Positions 6,878-36,420 are shown, counted from the first letter of the stretch. The stretch is 64,000 nt of DNA from Candidatus Multivorans sp. (GCA_965247095.1 OZ251997.1:3552001-3616000), one strand, 5' to 3'. Notes: generated by a model from the sequence alone, not told the origin. Numbers and translations: made by a program.

Positions 6878-8253
<1,376 letters not shown>

Positions 8254-8257
<4 letters not shown>

Positions 8258-11106
8258 GGTCCTGGCACTTGCGGCTCTAGCGGCGACGAGACCATCTGTG
8301 GCAGGCGGACGGTGAATCGGCAGCCCGCGGGATCGAGGTTGGCGACGGAGAGGTCGCCGCCGTGCCGGCGCACGATCTCCTGGCTGATGGAGAGACCGAG
8401 GCCGGTGCCGCCGCTGGCCTTGCGAGTGGAGAAGAAAGGCTCGAATACACGTTCGAGGTGCTGTTCGCGAATGCCGGGGCCCGTGTCGTCGATGAATACG
8501 TTGATTTCGCCGTCCAGGTGCCATCCCGGCACCCGCTGACGGGTGCCGGGACTGGTTCGCGTTTGGCGCGAGGACGCGCCAACCGGGTTCCGCACCGCGA
8601 GGGTGAGCCTTCTCGGTCCCGAGCCTGCCTCCGTCATCGCGTCGACGGCATTCGCCAACAGGTTGGCGAGCACCTGGCCCAGCTCGGTGTCGTTGCCGAG
8701 CACCCAGACCGTGTTGTCGGGGTCGAGGTCGACGTGGACTTCGACGCCCGCCTCGGCGAAACGCTCGGCGAGCATGTCGCAGCTCTCCTGGATGACGGCG
8801 CCCAGGTCGACGGCGGCGGGCTCGTACCGGCCTCGGCGCGCGAAGTCCAGCAGCGTGTTCACGATGCGGGCGGCGCGGAAGGTCTGGCGCTCGACCTTGC
8901 GCAGCAGGCGCCGGCGCGGATCCCGTTCGGGAGTTTCGGCGAGCAGCATCTGGGCGTAGCTCGAGATGCCGGTCAGCGGCGTGTTCACCTCGTGGGCGAC
9001 GCCGGCGGCCATGGCGCCGATGGCCGCCAGGCGCTGGTTCTCGGCCAGTTTCCTCTTCATCGCTTCGCGTTCGGTGATGTCGAGGGCGACAACGACCCGA
9101 TGACCGGGGACGGCGCCCAGGAACTCGGCGACCGACAACTGCAGGTGCTGCTCGCGCCTCTTCGAGTCCTCAAACCGGACCTCGACGGGCGGGGCGCCCT
9201 GCTTCGGGAAGAACTGGAGCGGGATCAGTTCGTGGAGGGCCTGGCCCTCGAGGTCGCTCCGGCTGAGCCCGACCAGGGCCGCGAAGGCGACGTTCGCGGT
9301 CACGATGCGGCTTGTGGAGTCGACGACGGCGATGCCGGCGGGGGAGGACTCGATGATCTCGTCGCTGAACTGCTTGAGTTCGGAGACGCGGTCCAACTGC
9401 CGCCGGCTCTGTTCCAGCAATTGCGCGTTCTCGATCGCCAGCGCCGCCTGGTTCAACAGTTGGCGAATCAGCGCAAGGTCGTCGCTGGACAGCGGTGCGC
9501 CGCCGGTGTGGTGACCGACGTACAGTAGGCCGACCCGGCGATCGCGCACCTCCAGCGGGAAGACGTAGTGATAACCGAGGACCGACAGCCGCATCGGGGT
9601 GCTCTTCGCGGTGTCGGCGAGCGGCGCCGGCGCGAGCAGGAAGTGGGACTCGCTCCAGATCAAAGCGTCCACTTCACTGAGTTCGAGGGCGGGCGCTTCC
9701 GGTTCTTCTCTGACCGCGACGAGCTGGTCTCCCTCGACCAGGAACAGGTTGCTGTGCTCCAGGTCCAGCCCCTCTTCGAGCTCCTTCAGCATGATCGAGG
9801 CGAGCCGGCCGAGATCTCGTTCGTGGAGCAGTTCTTCGCCCAGCCGCTCCAGGGCGCGCCGGCTCTGCTGCGCCCGGTACTGGAGCCGCTGGAGGCTCGT
9901 GCCGATGGCCTGCCTTACCGGGATCGAGAGGGTGCCGATGACCAGGAGAGCGCTGGCGTTGAGGAAGCCCCTTGCTACGACCATGTCCGGGGGCACGCCG
10001 CGACGGATGAGCAAGCTGAGCAGGGAGAACCCGAGCACGGCCAGCAGCACGGTGAGCGCGTAGGTCGCGACATCGCGGGCGATAACGGCCACGTCCCAGA
10101 GCCGGTAGCGCAGCAGGGCGTAGGCGAAGCTCAGCGGCACCAGCGCCAGGGGCGCGGTGGCGGCGACGCTCAGCCAGGCGGGCGCCGGGAGCTGAAAGGA
10201 GAGGGGCACGACGTAGAGCAGCAGGAAGGGCAGGTAGCCGCCGGCGACGCCGAACGCGATCCACTGGGTCTGGCGGCCCTGTTCCCAACCGTGGCGGGAC
10301 AGCAGGCTGCGACCGAGGACCCCGGCCGCCGCCAGCGCATAGGCGACGAGCAGGAAGAGCTCGATGCGGTCCTGCATCTCCAGGGTGGCTGCGTTCAACC
10401 CGCCGGTGAGCATGCCGCTGCCGAAGATCTGGTCGAACTGCACCACCAGGAGCGCCATGGCCGGCAGGTAGAGCCAGGGCGCCGCGCGGCGCAGCCAGCG
10501 GGAGCGCGGCCGCGCCGGGAACACGAGGAAGAAGTGCAGTGTCAGCGGCGGCAGCAGGAGGCGGCAGACGCCGTCGACGAGGTAGAAGACGCGGTCGATG
10601 CCGTCGTAGGGGGCGGCCGGCGTCAACAGGTAGACGGCGGCCGACGTCAACGTCCAGAGGTGGAAGAGCAGGATCGGCCGGCTGCGCTGCCGGCTCAGTG
10701 TGTAGAGGCCGATCAGCAGGTAGGCGATCCCGGTCAGGGCGAGCGCGATGTAGGCCCAGTCCAGAGTCACCCCGGGCAGGCTGTGCCGGGCCGAGACCAG
10801 TTCGTCGTCCCGAAGCACCTCCAGGTCGCTCTCGCTGCAGCAGCGCAGCAACCGGTCCAGCTCGTCGGCGGACAGCGCCCGTTCGCCGTTGACCAGGACG
10901 ATGATGTCGCCGATCTGGAGGTCGGAGGCCTCGTTCGCCGACGCCACCCGCAGTCCGCTGTCGGTCGCCTCGGCCACCAGGCCGATCGTCTGGAAGGAAG
11001 CCACCTTGCGGCCGACGGAGAACCCGCCCAGGCCGACGACCAGAATGGTCAGCAGGAGCAACGCCGCAGTGAGGCCGAGTCGGGCTGGTCGGGACTCGAT
11101 GCGCAT
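8254..11106 (-). CDS. Membrane sensor histidine kinase (PDZ-like, multi-TM, GAF, PAS, HisKA, HATPase)
   Basis: H-box AHEVNTPL, NLLANAVDA, DTGPGI and GTGLGLSI; 4-bp overlap with the regulator. Confidence 0.93.
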
Positions 11107-17974: not shown

Positions 17975-19249
17975 TCAATAGGAGATGATCTCGGCGATGC
18001 GGTGGTTCTGAATCTGGCGCCGGATGACCTCAGAGGAAACGAGGAACTCATGGGCGAAATCATCAATCTGTTCGCTATCCACGCGCTGGGTGTTGATTCG
18101 ACTATCTAGCGAAGCGGAGGGAGCAAGAAACTCCGCTGCGAATGCCCGCGCCCGCGCCTGAGAGTCGGTTGCCACCGCACTGAGCAGGCTGAACTCGGCT
18201 GTAGGCCGTCCGAGGAAATCACCGAGTGCCCGAGCTTGGAGGAACCGAGTGCCTGTCTGTCGGCGTCGTGCTATTACGCATTGAGGAGTATCGGCTCCAA
18301 CGAGTCCATGAAGTCGCGCAGTCGGTACTTCTCTTGACTCGTAAGGGATGGCCAGTGGGCCGTTGTCAAGGTCGATGGAGCCACCATTGGCCCCGATCCT
18401 TTCTCGTACTGCGCGCGCCGTCTCGTAGCCCCAAGTCCACGGTTCAGGACCGAAAGTCGGCAGTTGCAACCCTTGGCGGATTCTTGGCCACTCGCTGCTT
18501 CTCTGCACTGCTTGGACGGTCCTCCTGGCATCCTCCAGCCAGTTGGTGATGGATGTCAACTCCAAGCCCTTGGCTACGGCTAGTGCATCCTCTCGAACAG
18601 ACGCGTCCGTACCGTTCCAGAAGCCTATGATGAGTTCCGCGACGTGATCTTCCACGTCAAAGGGGTCAACTCCGAAGAGCGCAGCAGCTCGACTGAATTC
18701 GAGTTCGCTGTCGTCAAGGTTGTTGATGGCGCTCCAGTTGCGGCTAAGGTCTTCGGCGGCAACCGCAGTTTCGGCATCTTCCTGGAGCCGGTTCAGCACG
18801 GCATCAATAAGTTTGCGGAACTCGGCTTCAAGCTCCTCTCGTTCGACTACTAGGCTTCCCTCTTGGAGGAAAGCGACTTGGGCGTACTGTAGGTCACTCC
18901 GAACCCACCTCAGTTGCATTCGGGTTTCCGAAGCGGGAGTGATGGTGAGTTCGGGCAATGCGAATCCACTTCCGGCCCAAGCCAGATTGTGTCGGGACGC
19001 GAACTCCGGATCCTGCCCTTCCATGTCTGCGACTTCGTACCGAATGTGGCACCAGTTGGCAACCAACCAGTCGGCAATGTTGAATAGCGGGATGATGACC
19101 GATTCCCGGTAGGTGTTGGTCAGGCGGTCAACGACTGCCGTGATTGCTGTCTTGTCCGCCGTGATGCGGAGTTCAGCCATAGTGAGCTCAGAGAGCCTGT
19201 CGGGTGACGAACCTGGATCGAACCAGTCAAACTCGAAGCGCACGGTCAT
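17975..19249 (-). CDS. Hypothetical protein with a C-terminal degenerate ImmA/IrrE (DUF955)-like domain
   Basis: RFLQARALGD in place of RFTLAHELGH, ARAFAAEFLAP and FAHEFLVSSEVIRRQI; lower GC than the flanks. Confidence 0.72.
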   Translation of the reverse strand: MTVRFEFDWFDPGSSPDRLSELTMAELRITADKTAITAVVDRLTNTYRESVIIPLFNIADWLVANWCHIRYEVADMEGQDPEFASRHNLAWAGSGFALPELTITPASETRMQLRWVRSDLQYAQVAFLQEGSLVVEREELEAEFRKLIDAVLNRLQEDAETAVAAEDLSRNWSAINNLDDSELEFSRAAALFGVDPFDVEDHVAELIIGFWNGTDASVREDALAVAKGLELTSITNWLEDARRTVQAVQRSSEWPRIRQGLQLPTFGPEPWTWGYETARAVRERIGANGGSIDLDNGPLAIPYESREVPTARLHGLVGADTPQCVIARRRQTGTRFLQARALGDFLGRPTAEFSLLSAVATDSQARARAFAAEFLAPSASLDSRINTQRVDSEQIDDFAHEFLVSSEVIRRQIQNHRIAEIISY

Positions 19250-19638
19250 GGGAGTCCTCGTACTCCCTCGTTTCGCTCCAAGGGGTATCCGTGGTACTCG
19301 CCCGAACCAGGTGATCCTTGGCGAGCTTCAAAGATGATCTCGCCTTCGCGGCGCCAGGCGTATCTCGGGTAACCGGCTTCCCATGCACCGGTATTGCCGG
19401 AGCGGATGGCATCTCGTAGCCACAGCTCGACAAGGTCGGGGCGCTCGGTCAAGTGGACAGGACAGAGCGAGGCCGTGGGGCGAGATCGTGGCGGTCCTGC
19501 AGGCGTTGGAATGCTCCGGTGGTAGGGACTTTCAACGTACTTACAGGACTCGGCGACTCGTGCCAAGTCCTTGCCTTTTGGTGCGGGCTTCACCTTGCGC
19601 GCCCTCACGCTACCGCGCTGAAATCTCGGTGGTCTCAA
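19246..19638 (-). CDS. Small basic hypothetical protein ending in EYHGYPL (toxin/RNase-like candidate)
   Basis: 130-aa ORF with an ATGA overlap to the next gene; YPRYAW and YHGYP motifs. Confidence 0.7.
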   Translation of the reverse strand: MRPPRFQRGSVRARKVKPAPKGKDLARVAESCKYVESPYHRSIPTPAGPPRSRPTASLCPVHLTERPDLVELWLRDAIRSGNTGAWEAGYPRYAWRREGEIIFEARQGSPGSGEYHGYPLERNEGVRGLP

Positions 19639-19750
19639 GGTCTCGCCTTTGAGGAATCGGAGAGTGGTCTCCGAGCATCAAGCAACGCATGGGGACGGCT
19701 TCGCCTTGCGGGCGCTCGGTCTCGTTGGCCGTGCGGCGATTATAGACCGG

Positions 19751-19858
19751 CTACGCAGCCTTGCCCGTCAGGCTCTTGTAGGTGAGTCGTCGGCCGATCA
19801 TCCCGATGAAGAGGAGCGTCATCTGTTCGATCGTGTCCAGCTCGCGAACGTTCTGGCG
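19751..19858 (-). pseudogene. C-terminal remnant of an IS1595-family-like transposase
   Basis: Manual translation RQNVRELDTIEQMTLLFIGMIGRRLTYKSLTGKAA* resembles the G(K/R)RLTY C-terminus of IS1595 transposases. Confidence 0.65.
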
Positions 19859-19944
19859 CTTTGTTCTTGCGTCGCCATTTTCGCTGAGGACGGTGCACTA
19901 TAGGTTCGTACCGTCGGCTAGGGGCGCTCGTTGACACGGAGGCA

Positions 19945-21087
19945 TCACCCGATCTGCGTCAAAGCCGAGTACATCGGCAGGTACATCGAGATCACGATGG
20001 CGCCGATGATGATGCCGAGGACGCTGATCAGCGCGGGTTCGAGGAGCTTCATCATGCTGTCGACGTCGTTGTCGACCTCCTCCTCGTAGAAGTCGGCGAT
20101 GCGGGTGAGCATGGGGCTCAGGGTGCCGGTCTGCTCGCCGACGTAGACGATCTGGCAGAGCATGGCGGGGAAGATTTTCGCGTGGCGCAGCGACTGGTTG
20201 ATCGGACGGCCCTGTTCGACTTCCCGGCGCACCTTGCGGAGGGCGCCTGCGACCACGACGTTGCCGGCGGCGTCGGCGGCAATGGACAGCGCGCTCAGGA
20301 TCGGAATGCCCGAGGAGAGCAGGATGGACAGGGTGCGGCAGATGCGTCCGGTGGCGATCCGCAGCATGAGCTTGCCGACGACGGGCAGCCGCAGCAGCAG
20401 ACGGTCGGCCGCCTCCCGGCCCCGCCGCGTACGGAGCAGCCGGTTCGCGGCAAACCCGGCCGCAGCGGCGAGCGCGAGCAACACGAGCACGTAGGCGCCG
20501 ATGAACTCGCTGACGCCGACCACGAGCCGGGTCAGGAGCGGCAGGTCGCCGCCGATGTCGTCGAAGAGGTGCTGGAACACCGGGATCACCTTCCACAGGA
20601 TCAGGAACACGACCGCGGTGGCAACGGTGAGGATGGCGGCCGGATAGGTCAGGGCGGAACGCACCTGGTTGCGTAGCTTGGCGACCTTCTCGATGTGGCT
20701 CGCCAGCCGATCCATCACCGTGTTCAGAGCGCCGCTGGCCTCGCCCGACGCGACCAGGTTGACGTAGAGATCGCCGAAGACGCGCGGCCGGCTCTTCATT
20801 GCGTCGGCCAGGCCGGCGCCCGCTTCGACTTCCGAGCGGACCTCGAGCAGGATCGAGCGCAGGCCCGGGTGCTGGCCCTCGACGCTGAGGATCTCGAGGC
20901 TCTGGAGCAGGGGCAGGCCGGCGTCGAGCAGCACCGCGAACTGGCGGCTGAAGACGGCGAGCGTCTTCGGGCCGACGCGCTGGCCCGGCCGCCACCAGGC
21001 CGGGCGGCGAGCCTTCGGGGGTGCGTCCTCGTCGACCTTCGGGTCCGGTACGAGGGGCTCGTCGTCGTCGAGCCAGCGCGGGAGCAT
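19945..21087 (-). CDS. pilC: Type IV pilus / T2SS inner-membrane platform protein (PilC/GspF)
   Basis: FSRQFAVLLDAGLPLLQSL, GEASGAL, SALTYP, GEQTGTL and LLEP..YLPM. Confidence 0.92.
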   Translation of the reverse strand: MLPRWLDDDEPLVPDPKVDEDAPPKARRPAWWRPGQRVGPKTLAVFSRQFAVLLDAGLPLLQSLEILSVEGQHPGLRSILLEVRSEVEAGAGLADAMKSRPRVFGDLYVNLVASGEASGALNTVMDRLASHIEKVAKLRNQVRSALTYPAAILTVATAVVFLILWKVIPVFQHLFDDIGGDLPLLTRLVVGVSEFIGAYVLVLLALAAAAGFAANRLLRTRRGREAADRLLLRLPVVGKLMLRIATGRICRTLSILLSSGIPILSALSIAADAAGNVVVAGALRKVRREVEQGRPINQSLRHAKIFPAMLCQIVYVGEQTGTLSPMLTRIADFYEEEVDNDVDSMMKLLEPALISVLGIIIGAIVISMYLPMYSALTQIG

Positions 21088-21193
21088 CGGTCAATCTCTC
21101 CGGGAGGTTGCAGCCCGCGCCCGGGAAGCGGGCGAAGCGTGGCGTACGCCCGCGCGGCGCCCCGTGCCGTTCCCGCCGCGCCGCCGGGTTCGT

Positions 21194-21853
21194 CTATTCG
21201 GGCTGGGCTTCGTCCGCCGGCGGCTCGGGGATGGCCACTTCCGTTTCCCCGAGCAGCACCAACAACTGCGTAATGCGCCCGCGGCTGTCGCCGTCGTCGC
21301 CGGCCGGGTGCTGGGAGACCAGGGTGACGAGCCGGTTCTCCAGCGGATGCAGCATGAACAGCCGGATCTGCTGCTGGGTGACGGCGTCGTCGCCCAGGAA
21401 GCGTCCTCGGGTGTACCGGGCCGGCCCGAGCGGACCGATAATCTGCCGGCCCGCGAGGTGGACGCCTTCCGGCATCCCCTCGTAGAACGGCTTGTGGCCC
21501 TTCGCCACGTCGTCGATCTCGATGCCGAAATCGCTGGGCTCGCCGACTTCCAGCCAGATGCTGCCCGGCGGCCCGGCGGGCGTCTCCGTGGTCTCGAGTA
21601 GTTCGCAGGCGAGCTCGAACGGTAGCTCGCTCGGCTCGACGTGGGTGCAGCCGTCCGGCAGGGCGTTGAAGGCGAGCGCCTCCTCCTCCAGGACGATCCG
21701 CACCGGACCGGTTTCCTCCGGTTCCGCCGCGCTCTGACAGCCGATGAGTACAGTCGAGACACCTGTACAGACCAAGACGAAAACAGCGGTGCGGAACGCG
21801 GTGCCGAGGGGCCCGCGGCCCGGCGCAGCAGGGGTCAGGTGGCGCCTGAACAT
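21194..21853 (-). CDS. Putative lipoprotein
   Basis: Basic N-terminus, hydrophobic stretch and lipobox LIGC. Confidence 0.7.
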   Translation of the reverse strand: MFRRHLTPAAPGRGPLGTAFRTAVFVLVCTGVSTVLIGCQSAAEPEETGPVRIVLEEEALAFNALPDGCTHVEPSELPFELACELLETTETPAGPPGSIWLEVGEPSDFGIEIDDVAKGHKPFYEGMPEGVHLAGRQIIGPLGPARYTRGRFLGDDAVTQQQIRLFMLHPLENRLVTLVSQHPAGDDGDSRGRITQLLVLLGETEVAIPEPPADEAQPE

Positions 21854-21927
21854 GGCGGGGACAGTACCATGCGGACCACCGCCAAACCCTGCTGCGGGGT
21901 GGTGAATGACCTACGGAGGAAGTCACG

Positions 21928-23256
21928 GTGGATAGACCGATCGCACGCGTTCTCAACTTGATCGACGACGGCGAACAACGCCTGTGGAACCTGACGCCGG
22001 ACGAGGCCCGGAAACGGCTGCTGCGCGGCCCCGAGGCGGTCCTGGGCATCGACGGGTCGTTCGCGCTCGCCGCCCGCCGGGGAGTGGACATCGTCATGGC
22101 CCGCAGTCTCGACCGGCCGATGCGCTACTTCCTGGCCAAGGAGTCCTCCGGGCCGATGCTGGTCATCGCCCAGCGCATCGACGAGATCAGGGACTGTCTC
22201 GCTGGCGAGGGGTATCTCGACCAGTTCCACCCCACCTACACGCGGATGGTCCCGGCGCACCACGCCACGACGCTGCGCCTGATCGGCTGCCCCGACCCTA
22301 ACCCGACCCACGAGCGCTTCTTCGATCCGCCGCGCGGCACGTTGCCGCCGGATCTCGACCTGATCGGCGAGCGCTACGTCGAGGCCCTGATGTTCGAGCT
22401 CCGCGGCTGGCTGGCCGCCATGCCGCCGGAGCGGGCGCGGGCGCCGATCGGGGTCTGCTTCTCCGGCGGCATCGACAGCGGCGCCGTGCTGGTGGCGCTC
22501 AACCACGCTTTGCTCGAGGGCGGTTCGAGCGCCGCCCGGCTCAAGGCGTTCACGCTCCGGGTCGGTGACGGCGCCGGCGACGCCGCCCAGGCGCGCGAGT
22601 TCCTTCGGCGCGTGGACCTCGAGATGCTGGGCGAGGAGATCGCGGCCGGCGCCGAGGCGGTCGATCCGCTGCGGGCGGTCGAGGTGATCGAGGACTACAA
22701 GCCGCTCGACGTCGAGTGCGCCGCCGTCGGCCTGGCCCTGCTGCGCGGCATTCGGGCGCGCTATCCGGACTGGCGGCTCCTGGTGGACGGCGACGGTGGC
22801 GACGAGAACCTGAAGGACTACCCGCTGGAGGAGAACCACGAGCTGACGATCACCAGCGTCGTGGGCAACTCGATGCTCTACCAGGAGGGTTGGGGCATAG
22901 GCATGATCAAGCACTCCCAGACCTACTCGGGCGGCCTGGGGCGGGCCACCGTCCGCACCCACGCGCCAGCCCGGCTGCTCGGCTTCGAAGGCTTCAGTCC
23001 CTTCACCCGGCCGTCCGTGATCGCGGTGGCCGAGGCGATCCCGTTCGACACGCTGGTCGGCAGCTCGCACGAGACCCTGTACGAGCTCAAGGGCGAAGTC
23101 GTGCGGCGGGGCATGAAGCGGGTGCTCGGCATCGACTTCCCGGTCTTCCCCAAGCGCCGCTTCCAGGAGGGCGCGGCGTCGGAGGACGTGTTCGCCGCCG
23201 CCTTCGACCGTCCGCCCGAGCAGTACCGCCGCCACTTCCAGTCGCTCTACGGGTAG
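21928..23256 (+). CDS. Asparagine-synthetase-like ATP-dependent amide ligase (no glutaminase Cys1)
   Basis: PP-loop CFSGGIDSG, DGDGGDE and SPF..KRRFQEG; the N-terminus is a truncated Ntn-like domain (IDGSFALA..ARSLDRPMRY). Confidence 0.85.
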   Translation: MDRPIARVLNLIDDGEQRLWNLTPDEARKRLLRGPEAVLGIDGSFALAARRGVDIVMARSLDRPMRYFLAKESSGPMLVIAQRIDEIRDCLAGEGYLDQFHPTYTRMVPAHHATTLRLIGCPDPNPTHERFFDPPRGTLPPDLDLIGERYVEALMFELRGWLAAMPPERARAPIGVCFSGGIDSGAVLVALNHALLEGGSSAARLKAFTLRVGDGAGDAAQAREFLRRVDLEMLGEEIAAGAEAVDPLRAVEVIEDYKPLDVECAAVGLALLRGIRARYPDWRLLVDGDGGDENLKDYPLEENHELTITSVVGNSMLYQEGWGIGMIKHSQTYSGGLGRATVRTHAPARLLGFEGFSPFTRPSVIAVAEAIPFDTLVGSSHETLYELKGEVVRRGMKRVLGIDFPVFPKRRFQEGAASEDVFAAAFDRPPEQYRRHFQSLYG

Positions 23257-23283
23257 CGGTTCCGGCTGGACCGGGGAGCGGGA

Positions 23284-24273
23284 ATGGGAAAGGGGTCCGA
23301 CGAGGCGCCGGGATTCGATCCGGCCGCCGTTCGGGCGCTTCGTCCGCCGAAGCCGGTGCTCGACCCCTGGCGGCCCCAGGGCGTGACGGTCGAGCTGGAG
23401 CGAGAGCCCGACGGTGCGCTCCGTGGGTCGGCGACCGTGTTCCTGACCGGGGCCGAGTGCCCGTTCACCTGCGTGTTCTGCGACCTGTGGCGGTACACCG
23501 CCTCTGGACCGACGCCGGAGGGAGCGCTGCCGGCGCAGTTGCGATCGGCCCTGGAACGGCTTCCCGGTCTTCTCAGTGAGGCCGGTCTCGACCGCTGCGA
23601 CCGGCTCAAGCTCTACAACGCGAGCAACTTCTTCGAGCCGCGCGCGGTGCCGGAGGCGGACCTGGAACCGATCGCGCGGCTTGCCGACGGCTTCGATCGG
23701 GTAGTCGTCGAGTGCCATCCGCGCCTCGTGGACGGCCGGGTGCGGCGCTTCGCCGACCGGCTCGAAGGTCGGCTGGAGGTGGCGATGGGCCTGGAGACGG
23801 TGCACCCGCAAGCCCTGCCGCGGCTCGGCAAGCAGTTGACGCTGGACCAGTTCGACCGGGCCGCGGCGCGTCTGCTCGAGGAGGGCATCGACCTGCGGGC
23901 GTTCGTGCTCGTGGGCGTGCCGTTCGTGCCGGCGGAGGAGCAGGCGCAGTGGGCTGCCGCGAGTGTGCGACACGCGGCGAGGGCCGGCGCCCGGTCGGTG
24001 GCGCTGATTCCGGTGCGGGGCGGCAACGGGGAACTGGAGCGGCTCGAGCGGCTCGGCTGGTTCGAGCCTCCCGACCTGGCCCTGGTGGGGGAGTCGCTGG
24101 CGTGCGGGCTCGAGACGGTCGCTCGGAGGGCGGCGGTGCAGGTCGACCCCTGGGATCTCGACCGCATCGCTTCGACCTGCGGCGCCTGCCGGGCCTCCCG
24201 CATCCAGGCGATCCGGGAGATGAACCGCACCGGCGAACCGCGGCGGACGGCGTGCGATGACTGCGGCGACTAG
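23284..24273 (+). CDS. Radical SAM protein, TIGR01210/RaSEA-like
   Basis: CPFTCVFC cluster motif, LKLYNASNFFE, VECHP, EVAMGLET and a C-terminal CGAC...CDDC. Confidence 0.88.
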   Translation: MGKGSDEAPGFDPAAVRALRPPKPVLDPWRPQGVTVELEREPDGALRGSATVFLTGAECPFTCVFCDLWRYTASGPTPEGALPAQLRSALERLPGLLSEAGLDRCDRLKLYNASNFFEPRAVPEADLEPIARLADGFDRVVVECHPRLVDGRVRRFADRLEGRLEVAMGLETVHPQALPRLGKQLTLDQFDRAAARLLEEGIDLRAFVLVGVPFVPAEEQAQWAAASVRHAARAGARSVALIPVRGGNGELERLERLGWFEPPDLALVGESLACGLETVARRAAVQVDPWDLDRIASTCGACRASRIQAIREMNRTGEPRRTACDDCGD

Positions 24274-25867
24274 CGCGGCAGAACGCCGCGAGATCGTGAT
24301 CGCCGGCGGGGGGTTCGCCGGGTCCATCCTGGCGCGAGCACTCCATGCCGACGGCCGCGACGTGCTGCTGCTCGAGCGCGGCCGCCACCCGCGGTTCGCG
24401 CTCGGCGAGTCGTCCACGCCGCTGGCCAACCTGGCCCTGGAGCGGCTGGCGGTCCACTACCGCTTTGAGGATCTGTGGACGCTGGCCGCCCACGGCCGCT
24501 GGCGGCGCGGGCTGCCCGAGGTCGGCGGGGGATTGAAGCGGGGCTTCTGCTTCTACTCCCACCGTCCGGGCCAGGCCTTCATGCCGGATGCCGCCGGCGG
24601 TCGCCGCCTGGTCGTCGCCGCGTCGCCGGACGACGATGCCGCCGACAACCAGTGGCTGCGCGCGGATGTGGACCGCTTCCTGTTCGAGCGCGCCCGGGCC
24701 GAGGGCGTGGACTGCCGGGAGGAAACGGCGGTCGAGGTGGTCTCGACGCCGGACGGCCCGCGAGGGGGACCGGTCCGGATCCGGGCCGGCGGCCGCGTCG
24801 TCGAGGCCGGCCTCCTGGTCGACGCGACCGGCGGATCGCCACTCGCCGAACAGTTGGGCGCCTGCTCGCTGCCGCCGCGGCTGCAGACGACCCTGGTGTA
24901 CTCGCATTTCGACGGCATCGCTCCCTTCGACCGCGGCGACGACTGGCCGGATTCGCCCTTTGGCGAGCGCTGGAGCGCCGCCCACCACCTGCTGGAGGAG
25001 GGTTGGATGTACCAGCTCCGCTTCGACGACGGTTCGGTGAGCGCCGGCGTCCTGCTCCCCGAGGACCGGCCCGCGGCCGCCGGCGCCCTCGAGCTCCTGG
25101 CCGCCGCCGGCTCAGGGGATCGCGCCGCCGCCGGTTCCGCCTTCGCCTCCCTGCTCGATCGCTACCCGTCGCTGTCGCGCCAGTTCGCCGAGCACCAGCC
25201 TCTACGGGACTTGGAGTCGCGCTCCGGCGTTGCCTACCGCCGCGACCGGGCCGTGGGTCCGGGCTGGCTGCTTCTGCCCCACAGTTACGCCTTCGCCGAC
25301 CCCATGTTCTCGACCGGCATCGCCTGGAGCCTGCTCGCCGTCGAGCGGATCGCCGGCCTCTGCAGCGGCGGTTTGCCCGCGGCGGGCGATCTCGACCGCT
25401 ACGGCCGGCTGCTGGCCGTCGAGGCGGACCACATCGACCGGCTGCTGGCCGCCGCCTACCGCCTGATGCCGGGCATGGAGCGCTTCACTGCCGCCGCGAT
25501 GGCCTACTTCGCGGCTGCGAGCTTCGACGAACTGCGCCAGCGGCTGCTCGACCCTCCGAACGAGGGCTGGTGCTGGCAGGGCTTCCTGGGCGCCGATGAC
25601 GCGCTCCGCCGCGGGCTGTTCGAGGAACTCGACGAGCGCTCGGCCAACCCCGCGGCGGCCCGGAAGCTGACGGACTGGATCGGGCCCGCGATCGAACCCC
25701 GCAACCTGATCGGCCTAGACGACCCGCGTCGCCGCAACGTCTACCCGGTCGACCTGGCGGGCATGGAGCGGCGACAGGAACAGATCGCGGCCGGTCTCGA
25801 AGTGGCGCCGGCGGAGCTCCGGCGGCGCTGGTCTCGGTTGCGGAGTCCGGACCGGATGCCGGGCTAG
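24257..25867 (+). CDS. FAD-dependent halogenase-like oxidoreductase (tryptophan halogenase superfamily)
   Basis: GGGFAGS, HPRFALGESSTP, LKRGF, GWMYQLRF (at the WxWxIP position) and FADPMFSTG; overlaps the radical SAM gene by 17 bp. Confidence 0.85.
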   Translation: MTAATSAAERREIVIAGGGFAGSILARALHADGRDVLLLERGRHPRFALGESSTPLANLALERLAVHYRFEDLWTLAAHGRWRRGLPEVGGGLKRGFCFYSHRPGQAFMPDAAGGRRLVVAASPDDDAADNQWLRADVDRFLFERARAEGVDCREETAVEVVSTPDGPRGGPVRIRAGGRVVEAGLLVDATGGSPLAEQLGACSLPPRLQTTLVYSHFDGIAPFDRGDDWPDSPFGERWSAAHHLLEEGWMYQLRFDDGSVSAGVLLPEDRPAAAGALELLAAAGSGDRAAAGSAFASLLDRYPSLSRQFAEHQPLRDLESRSGVAYRRDRAVGPGWLLLPHSYAFADPMFSTGIAWSLLAVERIAGLCSGGLPAAGDLDRYGRLLAVEADHIDRLLAAAYRLMPGMERFTAAAMAYFAAASFDELRQRLLDPPNEGWCWQGFLGADDALRRGLFEELDERSANPAAARKLTDWIGPAIEPRNLIGLDDPRRRNVYPVDLAGMERRQEQIAAGLEVAPAELRRRWSRLRSPDRMPG

Positions 25868-25894
25868 GAGACTGCGCGGCAGAACGATCCGACC

Positions 25895-26010
25895 TGGGAA
25901 CCCGTGTGGCGCGACCCGCGCCACACGCGAACCACTCCGTGGGCCCGTCATCGGGCGCACGGATGGCACGCGGGCATCCTGCCCGCATCCGGCGCGAAGC
26001 GCCGGCCTCC
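25895..26010. repeat. Cluster of REP-like hairpins
   Basis: GTGTGGCGCGACCCGCGCCACAC, TCCGTGGGCCCGTCATCGGGCGCACGGA and GCGGGCATCCTGCCCGC; each recurs elsewhere in the window. Confidence 0.8.
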
Positions 26011-26052
26011 GGTAGTTCTGCCGGGCTAGCGCGGTAGCGACTCTCTACCGCC

Positions 26053-26949
26053 TCAGGGAGGTCCGATCAGCTCGTTCACCGAGCTCTCGAAGCCGGTCTC
26101 GGGCCGGTCCCGCCGCAGTCGGCGGGCGGCGAGGCCTTCGACGATGCGCCGCGGCTGGATCGAGCGCAGCCGCAATCGGTGGGCATCGAGCAGGTCGGCG
26201 GAGAGGGCCAGGGCGGCGGCGCGGTCGCTGCGGTCTTCCAGGGCGCCGGCCGCTTCCGCCAGCGCGGCGGCGATCCGCGTCCAGCCCCGGCGCGCCCGAA
26301 TGTCCTCGAAGCCCCCTCCTTCGAGCAGGCGTTCGGCCAGGGCCGAGACCCACAGAGCGAAGGCGTCATCGGCCGGACGCTGGCGCCACAGGTCGACCAG
26401 GTCGGAGGCCAGTTCCTCGTCGGCGCCGGCGCCCGCGGCATCGCCGGCGCCGAGGTAGACGGTCAGCGACCGGCTGCGCAGGGTGGGCAGCAGCTCGCTG
26501 GCCGACGAGGCCAGCAGCAGGAAGTTCCTGGGCGACCTGTCGGCCGGCTCCTCGAGGGTCTTGAGCAGCACGTTCGCTCCCGCCGGATGCAGGGCCTCCG
26601 CTTCGACGATGACGAACACCTGGCCCCGGGCCTCGAACGGCGACACCTGGGCCGTCTGCAAGAGGGCTCTGACCTTGTCCACGGGGATGACCGTCTCTCT
26701 CTTCTTCGGATCGCGGCGCACAAACACGAAGTCGGGATGGAAGACGCCGTCGTCCTCGATGTCGATCCGCCGGCAGTGTCGGCACTCGCCGCAGGGCCGT
26801 GCTGCCGGCGCCCGTTCGCACAGCAGCGCCCGGGCGATCTCGCAGGCGAGGTCGAGCCGATGCGTCGCCTCGCCCCCGTGGAGGATCACCGAGGCGTACA
26901 GCCGGCCCGCGGCAGCAAGCCCTGGCAGTTGCGCCGCGGCCCGGCTCAT
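26053..26949 (-). CDS. holB: DNA polymerase III delta' subunit-like
   Basis: PCGECRHCRR, HPDF, ANVLLKTLEEP and LLPTLRSR; follows tmk. Confidence 0.88.
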   Translation of the reverse strand: MSRAAAQLPGLAAAGRLYASVILHGGEATHRLDLACEIARALLCERAPAARPCGECRHCRRIDIEDDGVFHPDFVFVRRDPKKRETVIPVDKVRALLQTAQVSPFEARGQVFVIVEAEALHPAGANVLLKTLEEPADRSPRNFLLLASSASELLPTLRSRSLTVYLGAGDAAGAGADEELASDLVDLWRQRPADDAFALWVSALAERLLEGGGFEDIRARRGWTRIAAALAEAAGALEDRSDRAAALALSADLLDAHRLRLRSIQPRRIVEGLAARRLRRDRPETGFESSVNELIGPP

Positions 26950-27593
26950 GCGCCGGCCGCCCTGTCACGCTGCGGTGGATCGAGGATGTCGCCCAGCGCC
27001 TCCTCGACTGCCCCCGCCACCGTTTCGATCGGCGCCGCCGCGTCGATGACGCGGAAGCGCGCCGGTTCGCCCGCGATCCGCTCCCGGAACGCGGCATGGA
27101 CGCGGCGGTAGAAGGCCAGGCTCTCCCGGTCGATGCGGTCGGCGGCACGGCCGCGCCGCCGCCGCTGCGCCTCCTCGGGCGGCAGGTCGAAGAAGAGGGT
27201 GCGGTCGGGCGCGCGGCAGCCGGTGGCGAGCCGGTCCGCCTCGGCGATCGACTCCGGCTGTACGCCCCGGCCGCCGCCCTGGTAGGCGTAGGTGGAATCC
27301 GTGAAGCGGTCGCACAGAACGACGGCGCCGGCGGCCAGGGCCGGCTCGATGACTTCGATCAGGTGCTGGCGACGGCTGGCGAACACCAGCATCAGCTCGA
27401 CCACACCGTCGACCTGCGCCGCCTCCCTTCTCAGGAACAGCTCGCGCAACAGGTCGGCGAAGGGCGTGCCGCCCGGCTCCCGGGTGACTACGTGGGCGAC
27501 CCCACGCCGTTCGAGCCGCGCCGCCACGCGTTCGAGCTGCGTCGATTTGCCGCTGCCGTCGAGACCCTCGAAGGTGATGAACCGCCCGGTCAT
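26946..27593 (-). CDS. tmk: Thymidylate kinase
   Basis: FITFEGLDGSGKSTQ, TREPGGT and CDRFTDSTYAYQG. Confidence 0.97.
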   Translation of the reverse strand: MTGRFITFEGLDGSGKSTQLERVAARLERRGVAHVVTREPGGTPFADLLRELFLRREAAQVDGVVELMLVFASRRQHLIEVIEPALAAGAVVLCDRFTDSTYAYQGGGRGVQPESIAEADRLATGCRAPDRTLFFDLPPEEAQRRRRGRAADRIDRESLAFYRRVHAAFRERIAGEPARFRVIDAAAPIETVAGAVEEALGDILDPPQRDRAAGA

Positions 27594-33254: not shown

Positions 33255-34415
<1,161 letters not shown>

Positions 34416-34464
34416 GGTACGCCCTGCGGTGCGGGCTGCGCGAGGCCCGCCTGACCGCGCCATC

Positions 34465-34528
34465 CTAGGAGTCAAGTCGCGGCGTCCGCGCCGCGCTGAC
34501 GCACAGCAAAAGGCCTTGTTCCATGGAA
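34465..34528 (+). repeat. Dispersed ~62-bp repeat (inverted copy at 60163..60226)
   Basis: CTAGGAGTCAAGTCGCGGCGTCCGCGCCGCGCTGACGCACAG...CTTGTTCCATG matches the reverse complement of 60163..60226. Confidence 0.85.
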
Positions 34529-34849
34529 GCACCAGAGATGATTCCTGATTTCACACTGTTTGTGGCCGCGGGGATCCTCCCCTCGGGCCTCGTCCAGATC
34601 CTGCCGCTGATCCTGATCGGCGGCATCTTCTACTTCCTGCTCATCGCCCCGGAACGCCGCCGCCGGCAGCAACTGCGGAAGACGGTGGAGGCCCTGAAGC
34701 GGGGCGACCGCATCCTCACGCAGGGCGGCATCCACGGTGAGGTCGTGTCGACCGAGTCGAACACCGTGATCGTGAAGATCGCGGACGGCGTCAAGGTCAA
34801 GGTGACGAAGGCCGCGGTGAGCGGTCTGGCGGAAGAGCCCAAGGCATGA
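34523..34849 (+). CDS. yajC: Preprotein translocase subunit YajC
   Basis: IFYFLLIAPE and LKRGDRILTQGGIHG; lies between tgt and secD. Confidence 0.95.
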   Translation: MEAPEMIPDFTLFVAAGILPSGLVQILPLILIGGIFYFLLIAPERRRRQQLRKTVEALKRGDRILTQGGIHGEVVSTESNTVIVKIADGVKVKVTKAAVSGLAEEPKA

Positions 34850-36420
34850 ACAGGAACCTGCTCTGGCGGGGCCTGCTCGTGGTCGTCGTGGTCGGCGCTT
34901 GCGCCTTCTGGGCGTTTCCGCTCGGCGACTCGATCCATCTGGGTCTCGACCTGCGCGGCGGCATTCACCTCGTGCTCGAGGTGCTGACCGACGATGCGCT
35001 GCGGGCGGAAGCGCAGAAGGACATCGACAGCCTGATCCAGAAACTGGACGAGAAGGGCGCCTCCGGCGTCGCCGGCGCGACCGAATCGCCGGTCCGCTTC
35101 CGACTCACCGGCCTGCCGGCCGACCAGGACACCTTGCTCCCCGACATCCTCGAGCAGTCCATGCCGTACTGGACGTGGAGGCGCAGCGGCGAGGAGGTGA
35201 TCTTCGACCGCCGGGCCGACGAGGTGAACAACATCCGCGAGCAGGCGATCAACCAGGCCCTGCAGACGATCCGCAACCGCGTCGACGAGTTCGGCGTCGC
35301 TGAGCCGGTGATCCAGCGTCAGGGTCTGGGCAGCAACCGGCTGGTGGTCCAGCTTCCCGGCGTCGACGACCCGGAACGGGTGAAGAACCTGATCAAGAAC
35401 ACCGCCTTCCTCGAGTTCCGCCTCGCCGTGTATCCCCCGAACGGCGGCGCGGCTGTGGACACCCAGGAGATCCTGAGTCAGTACGCCGGCACGCTTCCCG
35501 ATCACCTCGAGATCCTGGCCCAGGACCAGCGGGACGACGACGGCAACGTGATCGGTCAGGGCTACTACGCGCTCGAGAAGCGCCCGGTGATCACGGGCCG
35601 CGATCTCAAGACGGCGCGCGCCGACCTCGGACAGTTCCAGGAGCCGGTGGTCAACTTCTCGCTCACCCACGAGGGCGCCCAGATCTTCGGGGACTGGACC
35701 GGCGCCAACATCGGCAGGCCCCTGGCGATCGTGCTCGACGGACGGGTGCAGTCGGCGCCGACCATCGAGGGCCGGATCTCGGACTCCGGGATCATCCGCG
35801 GGTCGTTCACCCAGCAGGAGGTCGAGGACCTGGCGATGGTGCTGCGTTCCGGCGCCCTGCCGGCGGGCATCGAGTACCTGGAGCAGCGGGCGGTCGGTCC
35901 GTCGCTGGGTCAGGACTCGATCGACCAGGGCGCCCGCGCCTTCATGTACGGCATCGCACTCGTGGTGCTGACGATGCTGGTCGTGTACCGCGGTTCGGGC
36001 ATCAACGCGATGGTGGCCCTGGCGCTCAACTTCGTGCTCGTGTTCGGTGTCCTGGCCTACTTCGGCGCCGCGCTCACTCTGCCCGGCATCGCGGGCCTGA
36101 TCCTGACCATCGGCATGGCGGTGGACGCCAACGTGCTGGTGTTCGAGCGGATCCGCGAGGAGTTGCACAACGGCCGCACGGTCAAGGCCTCGGTTGTCTC
36201 CGGCTTCGGCAAGGCGTGGTCGTCGATCCTCGACGCGAACCTGACCACCCTGATCGCGGCCATTTTCCTGATCAACTTCGGCACCGGCGCGATCCGCGGC
36301 TTCGCGGTGACGCTCACCGTCGGCATCCTGGCTTCGGTGTTCACGGCCGTCTTCAACAGCCGTCTCCTGTTCGACCTGGTCCTCTCGCGCTCGGGCCGCG
36401 TCGAGCGTTTGTCCATCTGA
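34846..36420 (+). CDS. secD: Protein translocase subunit SecD
   Basis: LGLDLRGG, RVDEFGVAEP, VGPSLG and GMAVDANVLVFERIREE. Confidence 0.97.
   Translation: MNRNLLWRGLLVVVVVGACAFWAFPLGDSIHLGLDLRGGIHLVLEVLTDDALRAEAQKDIDSLIQKLDEKGASGVAGATESPVRFRLTGLPADQDTLLPDILEQSMPYWTWRRSGEEVIFDRRADEVNNIREQAINQALQTIRNRVDEFGVAEPVIQRQGLGSNRLVVQLPGVDDPERVKNLIKNTAFLEFRLAVYPPNGGAAVDTQEILSQYAGTLPDHLEILAQDQRDDDGNVIGQGYYALEKRPVITGRDLKTARADLGQFQEPVVNFSLTHEGAQIFGDWTGANIGRPLAIVLDGRVQSAPTIEGRISDSGIIRGSFTQQEVEDLAMVLRSGALPAGIEYLEQRAVGPSLGQDSIDQGARAFMYGIALVVLTMLVVYRGSGINAMVALALNFVLVFGVLAYFGAALTLPGIAGLILTIGMAVDANVLVFERIREELHNGRTVKASVVSGFGKAWSSILDANLTTLIAAIFLINFGTGAIRGFAVTLTVGILASVFTAVFNSRLLFDLVLSRSGRVERLSI

Follow-up and report, generated by a model that had tools for sequence, protein, structure and literature searches.

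Among the closest described systems, QueE and QueC pair a radical S-adenosylmethionine (SAM) enzyme and a PP-loop enzyme without glutaminase, the latter turning a carboxylate into an amide, and in archaeosine synthesis RaSEA reportedly strips the lysine skeleton by radical chemistry, a result ascribed to Yokogawa et al. in 2019. ArcS, with which RaSEA works, transfers lysine to preQ0 and yields preQ0-Lys en route to archaeosine, as set out in one article (PMC11298593). For MnmL/YhcC, a preprint (bioRxiv 10.64898/2026.05.18.725915) describes the conversion of 5-carboxymethylaminomethyl-2-thiouridine (cmnm5s2U) to 5-aminomethyl-2-thiouridine (nm5s2U) in tRNA, in which a C-N bond is cut. Here we analyse a three-gene operon at positions 21928-25867 of a 64,000-nucleotide stretch from Candidatus Multivorans sp. 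(GCA_965247095.1 OZ251997.1:3552001-3616000; G000:C1:3552001-3616000 in our own numbering), referred to below as the window, which lies in a genome of 4.6 Mb assembled as a single contig and 98.96% complete. The operon encodes, in this order, a relative of asparagine synthetase lacking the glutaminase (gene 1), a radical SAM enzyme (gene 2) and a flavin-dependent halogenase-like protein (gene 3), known enzyme superfamilies in an undescribed and tightly co-inherited combination. The features of the operon are as follows.

21915..21919, plus strand: GGAGG, Shine-Dalgarno-like, 8 nt ahead of the GTG of gene 1, read from the sequence
21928..23256, plus strand: gene 1, 442 aa, GTG start; predicted to belong to the asparagine synthetase superfamily (PP-loop ATP pyrophosphatases), without glutaminase and resembling beta-lactam synthetase (Pfam PF00733, Foldseek, profile alignment)
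22462..22479, plus strand: PP-loop SGGIDS, gene 1 residues 179-184; S179, G180, G181, D183 and S184 invariant in 20/20 orthologues
22789..22806, plus strand: GDGGDE, gene 1 residues 288-293, counterpart of GEGSDE in asparagine synthetase; invariant in 20/20 orthologues
23284..24273, plus strand: gene 2, 329 aa; predicted radical SAM enzyme with RaSEA (TIGR01210) and MnmL/YhcC (TIGR01212) as distant relatives (Pfam PF04055, NCBIfam)
23458..23481, plus strand: CPFTCVFC, the CxxxCxxC radical SAM cluster motif, gene 2 residues 59-66; C59, C63 and C66 invariant in 14/14 family members
24178..24264, plus strand: C-terminal CxxC...CxxC of gene 2, CGAC at 299-302 and CDDC at 324-327; C302, C324 and C327 invariant, C299 in at least 90% of 14
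24257..25867, plus strand: gene 3, 536 aa; predicted flavin-dependent halogenase-like protein of the CtcP/PltM (phenol/pyrrole) type (Pfam PF04820, PDB sequence matches)
24533..24547, plus strand: LKRGF with Lys94, gene 3 residues 93-97; K94 aligned to the GxK of CtcP/PltM and invariant in 16/16 orthologues
25001..25024, plus strand: GWMYQLRF, gene 3 residues 249-256, a degenerate WxWxIP; CtcP has GWMWIIPF and PltM GWLWVIPF at the same place

The gap of 27 bp between genes 1 and 2 and the overlap of 17 bp between genes 2 and 3, on which the original prediction had based its claim of three co-oriented and tightly coupled genes, were both confirmed. The start residue of gene 1 is common to its orthologues in an alignment, and the third-position guanine plus cytosine (GC) fractions of 0.93, 0.88 and 0.90 for genes 1, 2 and 3 are like those of other genes called in the window, which has a GC content of 70%. 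The three are real genes and form one translationally coupled operon.

The original prediction had also called the pathway undescribed, and this view stands. No specific model for the trio was found in Pfam, NCBIfam 20.0 (June 2026) or PADLOC, no published account in open-access papers and bioRxiv, and no characterised pathway in the PDB. The names carried by the source records are generic ('asparagine synthase-related', 'radical SAM protein', 'archaeosine synthase beta-subunit', 'tryptophan 7-halogenase'). Since its scores fall far below the curated cut-offs, the module is placed outside the AsnB, RaSEA, MnmL and QhpG families.

Linkage and distribution of the three genes

A scan of one genome per species with patterns of the gene 2 family gave at least 599 matching stretches, at least 464 of which encode a relative, and the best 80 loci were analysed, the closest among them labelled Candidatus Multivorans or Thermoanaerobaculia, Acidobacteriota. 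In all 80 of these gene 2-anchored loci a gene 1 homologue was found upstream on the same strand, at a distance of at most 300 bp in 76; the spacing was 303 bp in L043, 344 bp in L011, 857 bp in L067 and 4.4 kb in L022. A gene 3 homologue followed directly downstream of gene 2 in 73 of the 80. A gene arrangement seen in 80/80 related loci is far beyond chance. Loss of this linkage in other genomes had been named beforehand as grounds for abandoning the original prediction, and the linkage was found to hold across several phyla of soil bacteria. Across the 44 more distant loci the median identity to the window proteins was 64%, 54% and 44% for genes 1, 2 and 3 respectively, and the distant versions at L090 and L091 keep the trio at identities of 55% for gene 1, 38-41% for gene 2 and 34-35% for gene 3.

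Gene 3 was absent from 5 of the 78 loci that could be judged (L058, L065, L067, L069 and L072, with more than 1.2 kb of downstream sequence), L039 and L059 being the two that could not. In two of the five genomes concerned an orthologue-level gene 3 lies at another position (47% and 44% identity); none was found in the remaining three, which are metagenome-assembled genomes (MAGs) of completeness not known. The association of genes 1 and 2 was also tested in the reverse direction, with 10 genomes of Acidobacteriota and 12 of Gemmatimonadota chosen because they carry a gene 1 homologue, and an adjacent gene 2 on the same strand was present in 22/22.

We then scored 151 Acidobacteriota genomes, drawn evenly, with a completeness of 90% or more and including the genome of the window and an unpublished one (G023), for presence at E-values of at most 1e-30 for gene 1, 1e-20 for gene 2 and 1e-40 for gene 3. 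Genes 1 and 2 occurred in the identical 12 of the 151 genomes; gene 3 accompanied them in 10, in each case adjacent to them, and was not found in any of the 139 genomes without the pair. The 12 pair-bearing genomes span 11 genera, related genomes among them not being independent. Gene 1 was present in 12 of 101 Gemmatimonadota genomes, and the module is thus patchy, being carried by about one in ten of the sampled genomes of these two phyla; it was also seen in one Myxococcota-labelled MAG. Genes 1 and 2 are an obligate pair and the core unit, gene 3 being frequent but not always present, and in the 151-genome sample the halogenase-like subfamily of gene 3 was seen only beside the pair. The linked trio of the original prediction is thus upheld, with the amendment that the pair, and not all three genes, makes up its core.

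Some individual loci depart from the usual layout. At L067 a TonB_C-domain gene (7105-7968) stands between genes 1 and 2, and a thioredoxin-like gene (8989-10275) occupies the place of the halogenase-like gene, of which an orthologue-level copy is encoded elsewhere in that genome. The gene 2 homologue of G005 (G005:C86:151637-152593) comes in two pieces, matching query residues 16-161 and 163-318, and may be frameshifted or broken. In a distant version of the pair in genome G011 (L089, 4077-4472) the homologues of genes 1 and 2 are separated by a PIN-domain (VapC-like) gene, and no halogenase-like gene is found there.

A FastTree phylogeny of 78 gene 1 sequences was built without an outgroup, omitting loci with partial matches (L006, L043, L053, L077, L078 and L089). 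The main Gemmatimonadota clade (19 rows, support 100) falls within Acidobacteriota clades with little other mixing, a pattern consistent with old inheritance, vertical for the most part, and a small number of transfers. The gene 1 family comprises at least 8000 scored candidates at E-values of at most 0.001, with 120 matches listed at 65-94% identity, and the gene 2 family 4874 candidates at the same threshold. Clustered at 50%, gene 1 gives essentially one full-length cluster together with fragments and a few relatives at 33-47% identity; a full-length relative of 39% identity is named from a Candidatus Berkelbacteria genome. In the ESM Atlas the homologues P0138 and P0018 returned only their own families, and this source together with the source name hints at relatives in Verrucomicrobiota, Pseudomonadota and Patescibacteria. 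A metagenome scan for distant relatives of gene 1 gave one weak locus. Two apparent gene 1-gene 2 fusion proteins, P0135 and P0254, are probably frameshift artefacts, because their middle parts match neither protein, and they were not used as evidence.

No relatives of gene 1 were found on plasmids or phages, and gene 2 was represented there only by relatives of 27-28% identity on two Streptomyces plasmids, the examined one lying in a dissimilar cluster. This relative, of 28% identity, heads a cluster on plasmid pFRL3 of Streptomyces sp. FR1 (L092, 406401-414507) that includes a cytochrome P450, a serine hydroxymethyltransferase, a GT9 glycosyltransferase, a carbamoyltransferase and heptose-activation genes, and that is probably a heptose-containing natural-product cluster. 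The radical SAM branch of gene 2 is thus present in secondary metabolism too.

The three proteins and their relatives

Every motif that the original prediction had named in the three proteins was located at its place. Gene 1 matches Asn_synthase (PF00733) at 1.2e-9 (38.7 bits against a gathering score of 21) over residues 169-301 only, and on this score and its motifs it is assigned to the asparagine synthetase superfamily. It was said to keep SGGIDS and GDGGDE while lacking an N-terminal Cys, and this is what was found, the protein beginning with VDRPIA, without a Cys-2, and giving no match to the GATase family of Pfam. Against TIGR01536, the glutamine-hydrolysing AsnB, it scored 34.9 bits where the cut-off is 267.1. 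About 140 residues precede the PP-loop domain, and of the glutaminase fold only a tail remains (GSFAL...ARSLDRPLRYFLAKE), which we take to be the C-terminal part of the AsnB glutaminase domain. The adenylating half is thus intact and the N-terminal domain dead, as in lactam synthetases, so that no ammonia is obtained from glutamine. Invariant blocks across the 20 orthologues include SGGxDS, DGDGGDENLKDYP and KRRFQxGA, amongst many others.

The AlphaFold2 model of gene 1 has a mean predicted local distance difference test (pLDDT) score of 72, with residues 291-345, the most conserved stretch of the protein, below 50. Its best folds in Foldseek were beta-lactam synthetase (1m1z/1mbz, 4.4e-10), 1mc1, the carbapenam synthetase CarA (1q19) and asparagine synthetases. 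E-values for the lactam synthetases ran from 4.4e-10 to 8.4e-10 (about 1e-9 to 1e-10), with modest template modelling (TM) scores of 0.37-0.45. In comparisons of profiles, the gene 1 family reached 1.7e-13 against human ASNS, aligned from the PP-loop to GDGGDE/GEGSDE, while the matches to beta-lactam synthetase (0.0012) and CarA (0.0072) were marginal and confined to the PP-loop region. At another position the genome carries a bona fide AsnB (270 bits), and asparagine supply was rejected as the role of gene 1 on the ground of this family-level enzyme.

Gene 2 matches Radical_SAM (PF04055) at 7.3e-7, with 29.9 bits against a cut-off of 29.5. It aligned with the RaSEA model TIGR01210 nearly over its full length, at residues 49-314 (1.1e-10, 41.2 bits against 212.15), and with the MnmL/YhcC (YtqA) model TIGR01212 over about 57 residues, 164-220 (E-value 0.004, 16.3 bits against 180). 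All 14 family members matched TIGR01210 (best 1.3e-26) and 12 of them TIGR01212. By these comparisons gene 2 is classed as a radical SAM enzyme to which RaSEA and MnmL are the nearest curated families, at scores far below their cut-offs. Its CxxxCxxC and the C-terminal CxxC..CxxC both lie where they had been reported, and the latter possibly forms a second metal site. No solved structure in the PDB matched gene 2 by sequence.

Gene 3 matches Trp_halogenase (PF04820) at 1.7e-14, with 54 bits against a gathering score of 21. Of the three profiles proposed in the original prediction, Asn_synthase and Trp_halogenase are therefore matched above their cut-offs, whereas TIGR01210 falls well short. 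Gene 3 is assigned to the PF04820 flavin-halogenase family by its gathering score, its GxGxxG and its conserved Lys, but it does not carry WxWxIP. In agreement with the original prediction, the FAD motif (GGGFAG, residues 17-22), the Lys of LKRGF, FxDPxxSxG (FADPMFSTG, residues 346-354) and GWMYQLRF in place of WxWxIP were all located. At the last of these sites the second Trp is replaced by Tyr (Y252) in 16/16 orthologues, the consensus being W-[ML]-Y-x-L-[RPA]. The GxK lysine is presumably the catalytic one in CtcP and PltM. By sequence the best PDB matches were tetracycline 7-halogenase CtcP (7xgb, 4e-32) and PltM (6bzt, 1.9e-27), and the best NCBIfam match was the QhpG flavin monooxygenase (NF049967, 1.1e-16, 60.8 bits against a cut-off of 240). 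The last 170 or so residues are kept within the family and do not align with CtcP or PltM.

Surroundings of the operon

As the original prediction had stated, the trio sits among unrelated genes, the family search of its neighbours having given housekeeping genes. Upstream, on the minus strand, lie a T2SS-F type gene and a 219-aa open reading frame (ORF) without a family; downstream lie holB, tmk, a DsbA-like gene, a nitroreductase-family gene and a nucleotidyl transferase. At 12 diverse loci the 27 flanking proteins fell into families unrelated to one another, and when the 4216 ORFs of the 80 loci were clustered all against all, only the trio was common across phyla, with tmk, holB and the DsbA-like gene common only to related Thermoanaerobaculia-type loci and L070.

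The module was self-contained, in that we found beside it neither a further conserved neighbour nor a precursor ORF, a carrier, a transporter, a regulator or a riboswitch, which agrees with the earlier statement that no precursor peptide, carrier protein or transporter lies nearby. No small ORF conserved across phyla was found within 1.5 kb of the trio, no RiPP (ribosomally made peptide with post-translational modifications) recognition element (RRE), protease or exporter among the neighbours examined (Pfam and the clustered ORFs of the 80 loci), and no TGT- or PUA-type gene adjoining the trio among those neighbours. Within genes 1-3 themselves, Pfam and NCBIfam gave no RNA-binding domain (PUA, THUMP, TRAM or other) and no RRE domain. 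Rfam gave no match at an E-value of at most 1 in window positions 20500-27000, and in 8 diverse loci it gave one tRNA only, unrelated to the operon. No sigma-70-like promoter or intrinsic terminator was detected, a result of little weight at this genome composition. Several roles were rejected on these grounds: a riboswitch or other RNA element, as Rfam had no match upstream; a RiPP cluster, as no conserved precursor peptide, RRE, protease or exporter was found beside the trio at the loci examined; and a defence system, as PADLOC-DB 2.0 gave 0 families for the three proteins and the upstream ORF.

Three further observations were made in the window. At 18001-20000 its GC content is 0.59, against about 0.70 around, and this stretch may be foreign DNA; a 424-aa minus-strand ORF (17975-19249) and a 130-aa ORF (19246-19638) found there have no match in Pfam or NCBIfam. 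The tmk-holB genes (26053-27593) are on the minus strand in the window and in L001, and share the strand of the trio in several related loci, with the same DsbA-like gene after them (compare L012, L036, L063, L070 and L073); their orientation in the lineage of the window is a local inversion. The genes tgt-yajC-secD are found in their usual arrangement at 33255-36420, 8 kb downstream of the trio, and are probably unrelated to it, tgt being a gene of the 7-deazaguanine pathway.

Possible chemistry and substrate

Each of the described systems resembles the module in part. As with ArcS and RaSEA of Euryarchaeota, where an amino acid, lysine, is attached to the target by way of its amine and the resulting adduct is next taken up by a radical SAM enzyme (PMC11298593), the radical SAM component here matches TIGR01210. 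The hosts of the trio are, however, bacteria, the score of gene 2 is far below the equivalog cut-off, and the partner in 80/80 loci is an ATP-dependent ligase of the asparagine synthetase type instead of the TGT/PUA-type ArcS; an adenylated carboxylate would take the place of the nitrile as electrophile, and a halogenase-like gene is added. MnmL/YhcC, according to the preprint (bioRxiv 10.64898/2026.05.18.725915), is likewise a radical SAM enzyme that strips a glycine-derived carboxymethyl from a nitrogen, although the match of gene 2 to it is very weak. With beta-lactam synthetase and CarA, gene 1 shares, as judged from its model, the asparagine-synthetase fold, in which an ATP/PP-loop domain follows an N-terminal domain that is catalytically dead; it differs in its marginal sequence similarity, low TM scores and shorter N-terminal domain, and no clavam or carbapenem genes lie near the trio. 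Gene 3 aligns with CtcP and PltM at GxGxxG, HPRF(A/S)xGE, the GxK lysine and FxDPxFSxG, but differs at WxWxIP and in its unaligned C-terminus, and no polyketide or pyrrole cluster accompanies it. The QueC and QueE models are not matched by the trio, and the gene order is reversed. By analogy, the architecture of the module appears closest to ArcS-RaSEA with another first enzyme, and gene 1 itself closest to the lactam synthetases.

The trio probably makes or modifies a compound of the cell. By analogy with these systems we tentatively favour, as one possibility, an amide-forming pair that would first ligate and then trim on an existing small metabolite, with tailoring by the flavoenzyme. The substrate would be a compound already in the cell, a small aromatic or amino-acid-derived carboxylic acid being likelier than RNA or protein. 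Gene 1 would adenylate its carboxylate and join it to a substrate amine, either that of an amino acid such as lysine or an intramolecular one; gene 2 would then cut the carbon skeleton of the donor off the nitrogen by radical SAM C-N cleavage to leave a primary amide or amine; and gene 3, whose tailoring would be frequent and dispensable, would chlorinate, brominate or hydroxylate an electron-rich ring. This appears the simplest reading since the adenylating half of gene 1 is intact and its glutaminase lost, and since gene 2 is near RaSEA and MnmL, both of which concern a nitrogen bearing an amino-acid-derived group. Amide formation coupled to radical cleavage, as put forward in the original prediction, gains indirect support from these nearest families, MnmL being reported to cut a C-N bond, while the chemistry and substrate are pure inference.

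As regards the substrate, the isoelectric points of the three window proteins are about 5.3-5.7, and acidity is also a feature of most orthologues. Among solved structures, the closest relatives of genes 1 and 3, including CtcP and PltM, are enzymes of free small molecules. We lean towards a small molecule because the proteins are acidic, lack an RNA- or peptide-recognition domain, have such relatives and are accessory, being carried by about one in ten genomes. Of the small molecule, nucleoside or peptide that had originally been offered, the nucleoside accordingly becomes less likely on account of the acidic proteins, the missing RNA-binding domain and this sparse distribution.

Several points weigh against ligation followed by trimming on a small metabolite. 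Both the sequence of the steps and the choice of amine donor are guesses. The characterised enzymes nearest to gene 2 have tRNA, not metabolites, as their substrate, and the similarity to them is remote (41 bits against 212, and 16 against 180). A glutaminase-less ligase can also use free ammonia or cyclise its substrate, in which case the radical SAM enzyme needs another role. The conservation of gene 1 (a median of 64% over the 44 loci) and the lack of a transporter or regulator fit a macromolecular substrate as well. Nothing can be read from the active site of gene 1, because residues 291-345 were modelled below 50 pLDDT, and the apparent fusions, which look like artefacts, lend no support to a complex between the proteins of genes 1 and 2. 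A more general form of the idea, somewhat unlikely and again drawn by analogy, is a bacterial nitrogen transfer in which a lysine-like amine would serve as masked ammonia and a radical SAM N-dealkylase would replace the glutaminase, giving a primary amide that would often be halogenated or hydroxylated.

A macromolecular target was considered in two forms. The pair might install or remodel a tRNA or rRNA nucleoside, where gene 1 could turn a carboxylated base, such as 7-carboxy-7-deazaguanine or a cmnm5/cm5-type uridine, into its amide and gene 2 could cut back an amino-acid adduct in the manner of RaSEA and MnmL. The two curated families nearest gene 2 are indeed tRNA enzymes, the surroundings are housekeeping genes with no other dedicated gene needed, gene 1 is unusually conserved, its relative from Candidatus Berkelbacteria is of full length, and the genome of the window is without a family-level MnmL. 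We nevertheless judge RNA modification improbable: the three proteins are acidic and free of RNA-binding domains, the trio occurs in only 12/151 and 12/101 genomes of the two phyla, halogenase-type flavoproteins are to our knowledge not known in RNA modification, and tgt, 8 kb away in its usual setting, is not among the neighbours examined in other phyla. It is also unlikely, though a case can be made, that the trio matures a protein or a RiPP precursor encoded elsewhere, with gene 1 forming an isopeptide, lactam or C-terminal amide like lasso cyclases, TsrC or PesC, gene 2 making a cross-link or cleavage and gene 3 hydroxylating or halogenating an aromatic residue like QhpG or MibH. Asparagine-synthetase-like enzymes do act on peptides, one article (PMC13060819) describing peptide amidation, cyclisation or nitrile formation; QhpG is the best NCBIfam match of gene 3, and the strong conservation and self-contained module suit a fixed macromolecular target. 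That match, however, is a quarter of the cut-off score, the closest solved relatives of gene 3 are the small-molecule enzymes CtcP and PltM, no precursor-like small ORF is kept across phyla, and RRE, protease and exporter genes are not among the neighbours examined.

Alternatively, the radical SAM enzyme might act first, following the logic of QueE and QueC: gene 2 would build or rearrange a carboxylic acid, gene 1 would amidate it with NH3 or close a (beta-)lactam and gene 3 would tailor the product, no trimming being involved. The glutaminase-less PP-loop enzymes QueC and NH3-dependent NAD synthetase use free ammonia, gene 1 comes closest in fold to the beta-lactam and carbapenam synthetases, which form lactams, and gene 2 resembles RaSEA and MnmL too remotely for its chemistry to be settled. 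The ligase gene, on the other hand, comes first in the operon, the families nearest gene 2 cleave C-N and are not ring-forming, and the TM-score to beta-lactam synthetase is only 0.40-0.45, and we regard this order of events as quite unlikely. Highly improbable is a replacement or supplement of the beta-lysylation of elongation factor P (EF-P), by analogy of a ligase, a radical SAM enzyme and a hydroxylase with EpmA, EpmB and EpmC. The genome of the window has efp and an adjacent EpmA above cut-off, and no EpmB or KamA family member; but EpmA above cut-off is missing from 8 of 10 other trio-bearing genomes, on which ground the link was rejected, and G005 carries EpmA and a KamA-family gene besides the trio. 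The genes in question (L082/L083, G000:C1:719832-721380) lie outside the window and encode an EF-P with an E. coli-like PGKGQAF loop and the adjoining EpmA (GenX). No EpmB or KamA-family lysine 2,3-aminomutase was found in this nearly complete genome even at an E-value of at most 1, and that gap is an oddity separate from the trio.

To return to ligation followed by trimming, the bacterial pair would, if this is true, be a carboxylate counterpart of the archaeal ArcS-RaSEA acting on a common metabolite or macromolecule, and would define a function for thousands of unannotated proteins. Since the module has three genes only and no other dedicated gene is needed, heterologous expression can address it directly. 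A solved function would correct generic annotations across thousands of relatives and would be the third, after those of RaSEA and MnmL, for a small radical SAM branch. It would also show what an asparagine synthetase without its glutaminase does with a radical SAM partner fixed beside it, and would give a substrate to the halogenase-like clade found beside the pair.

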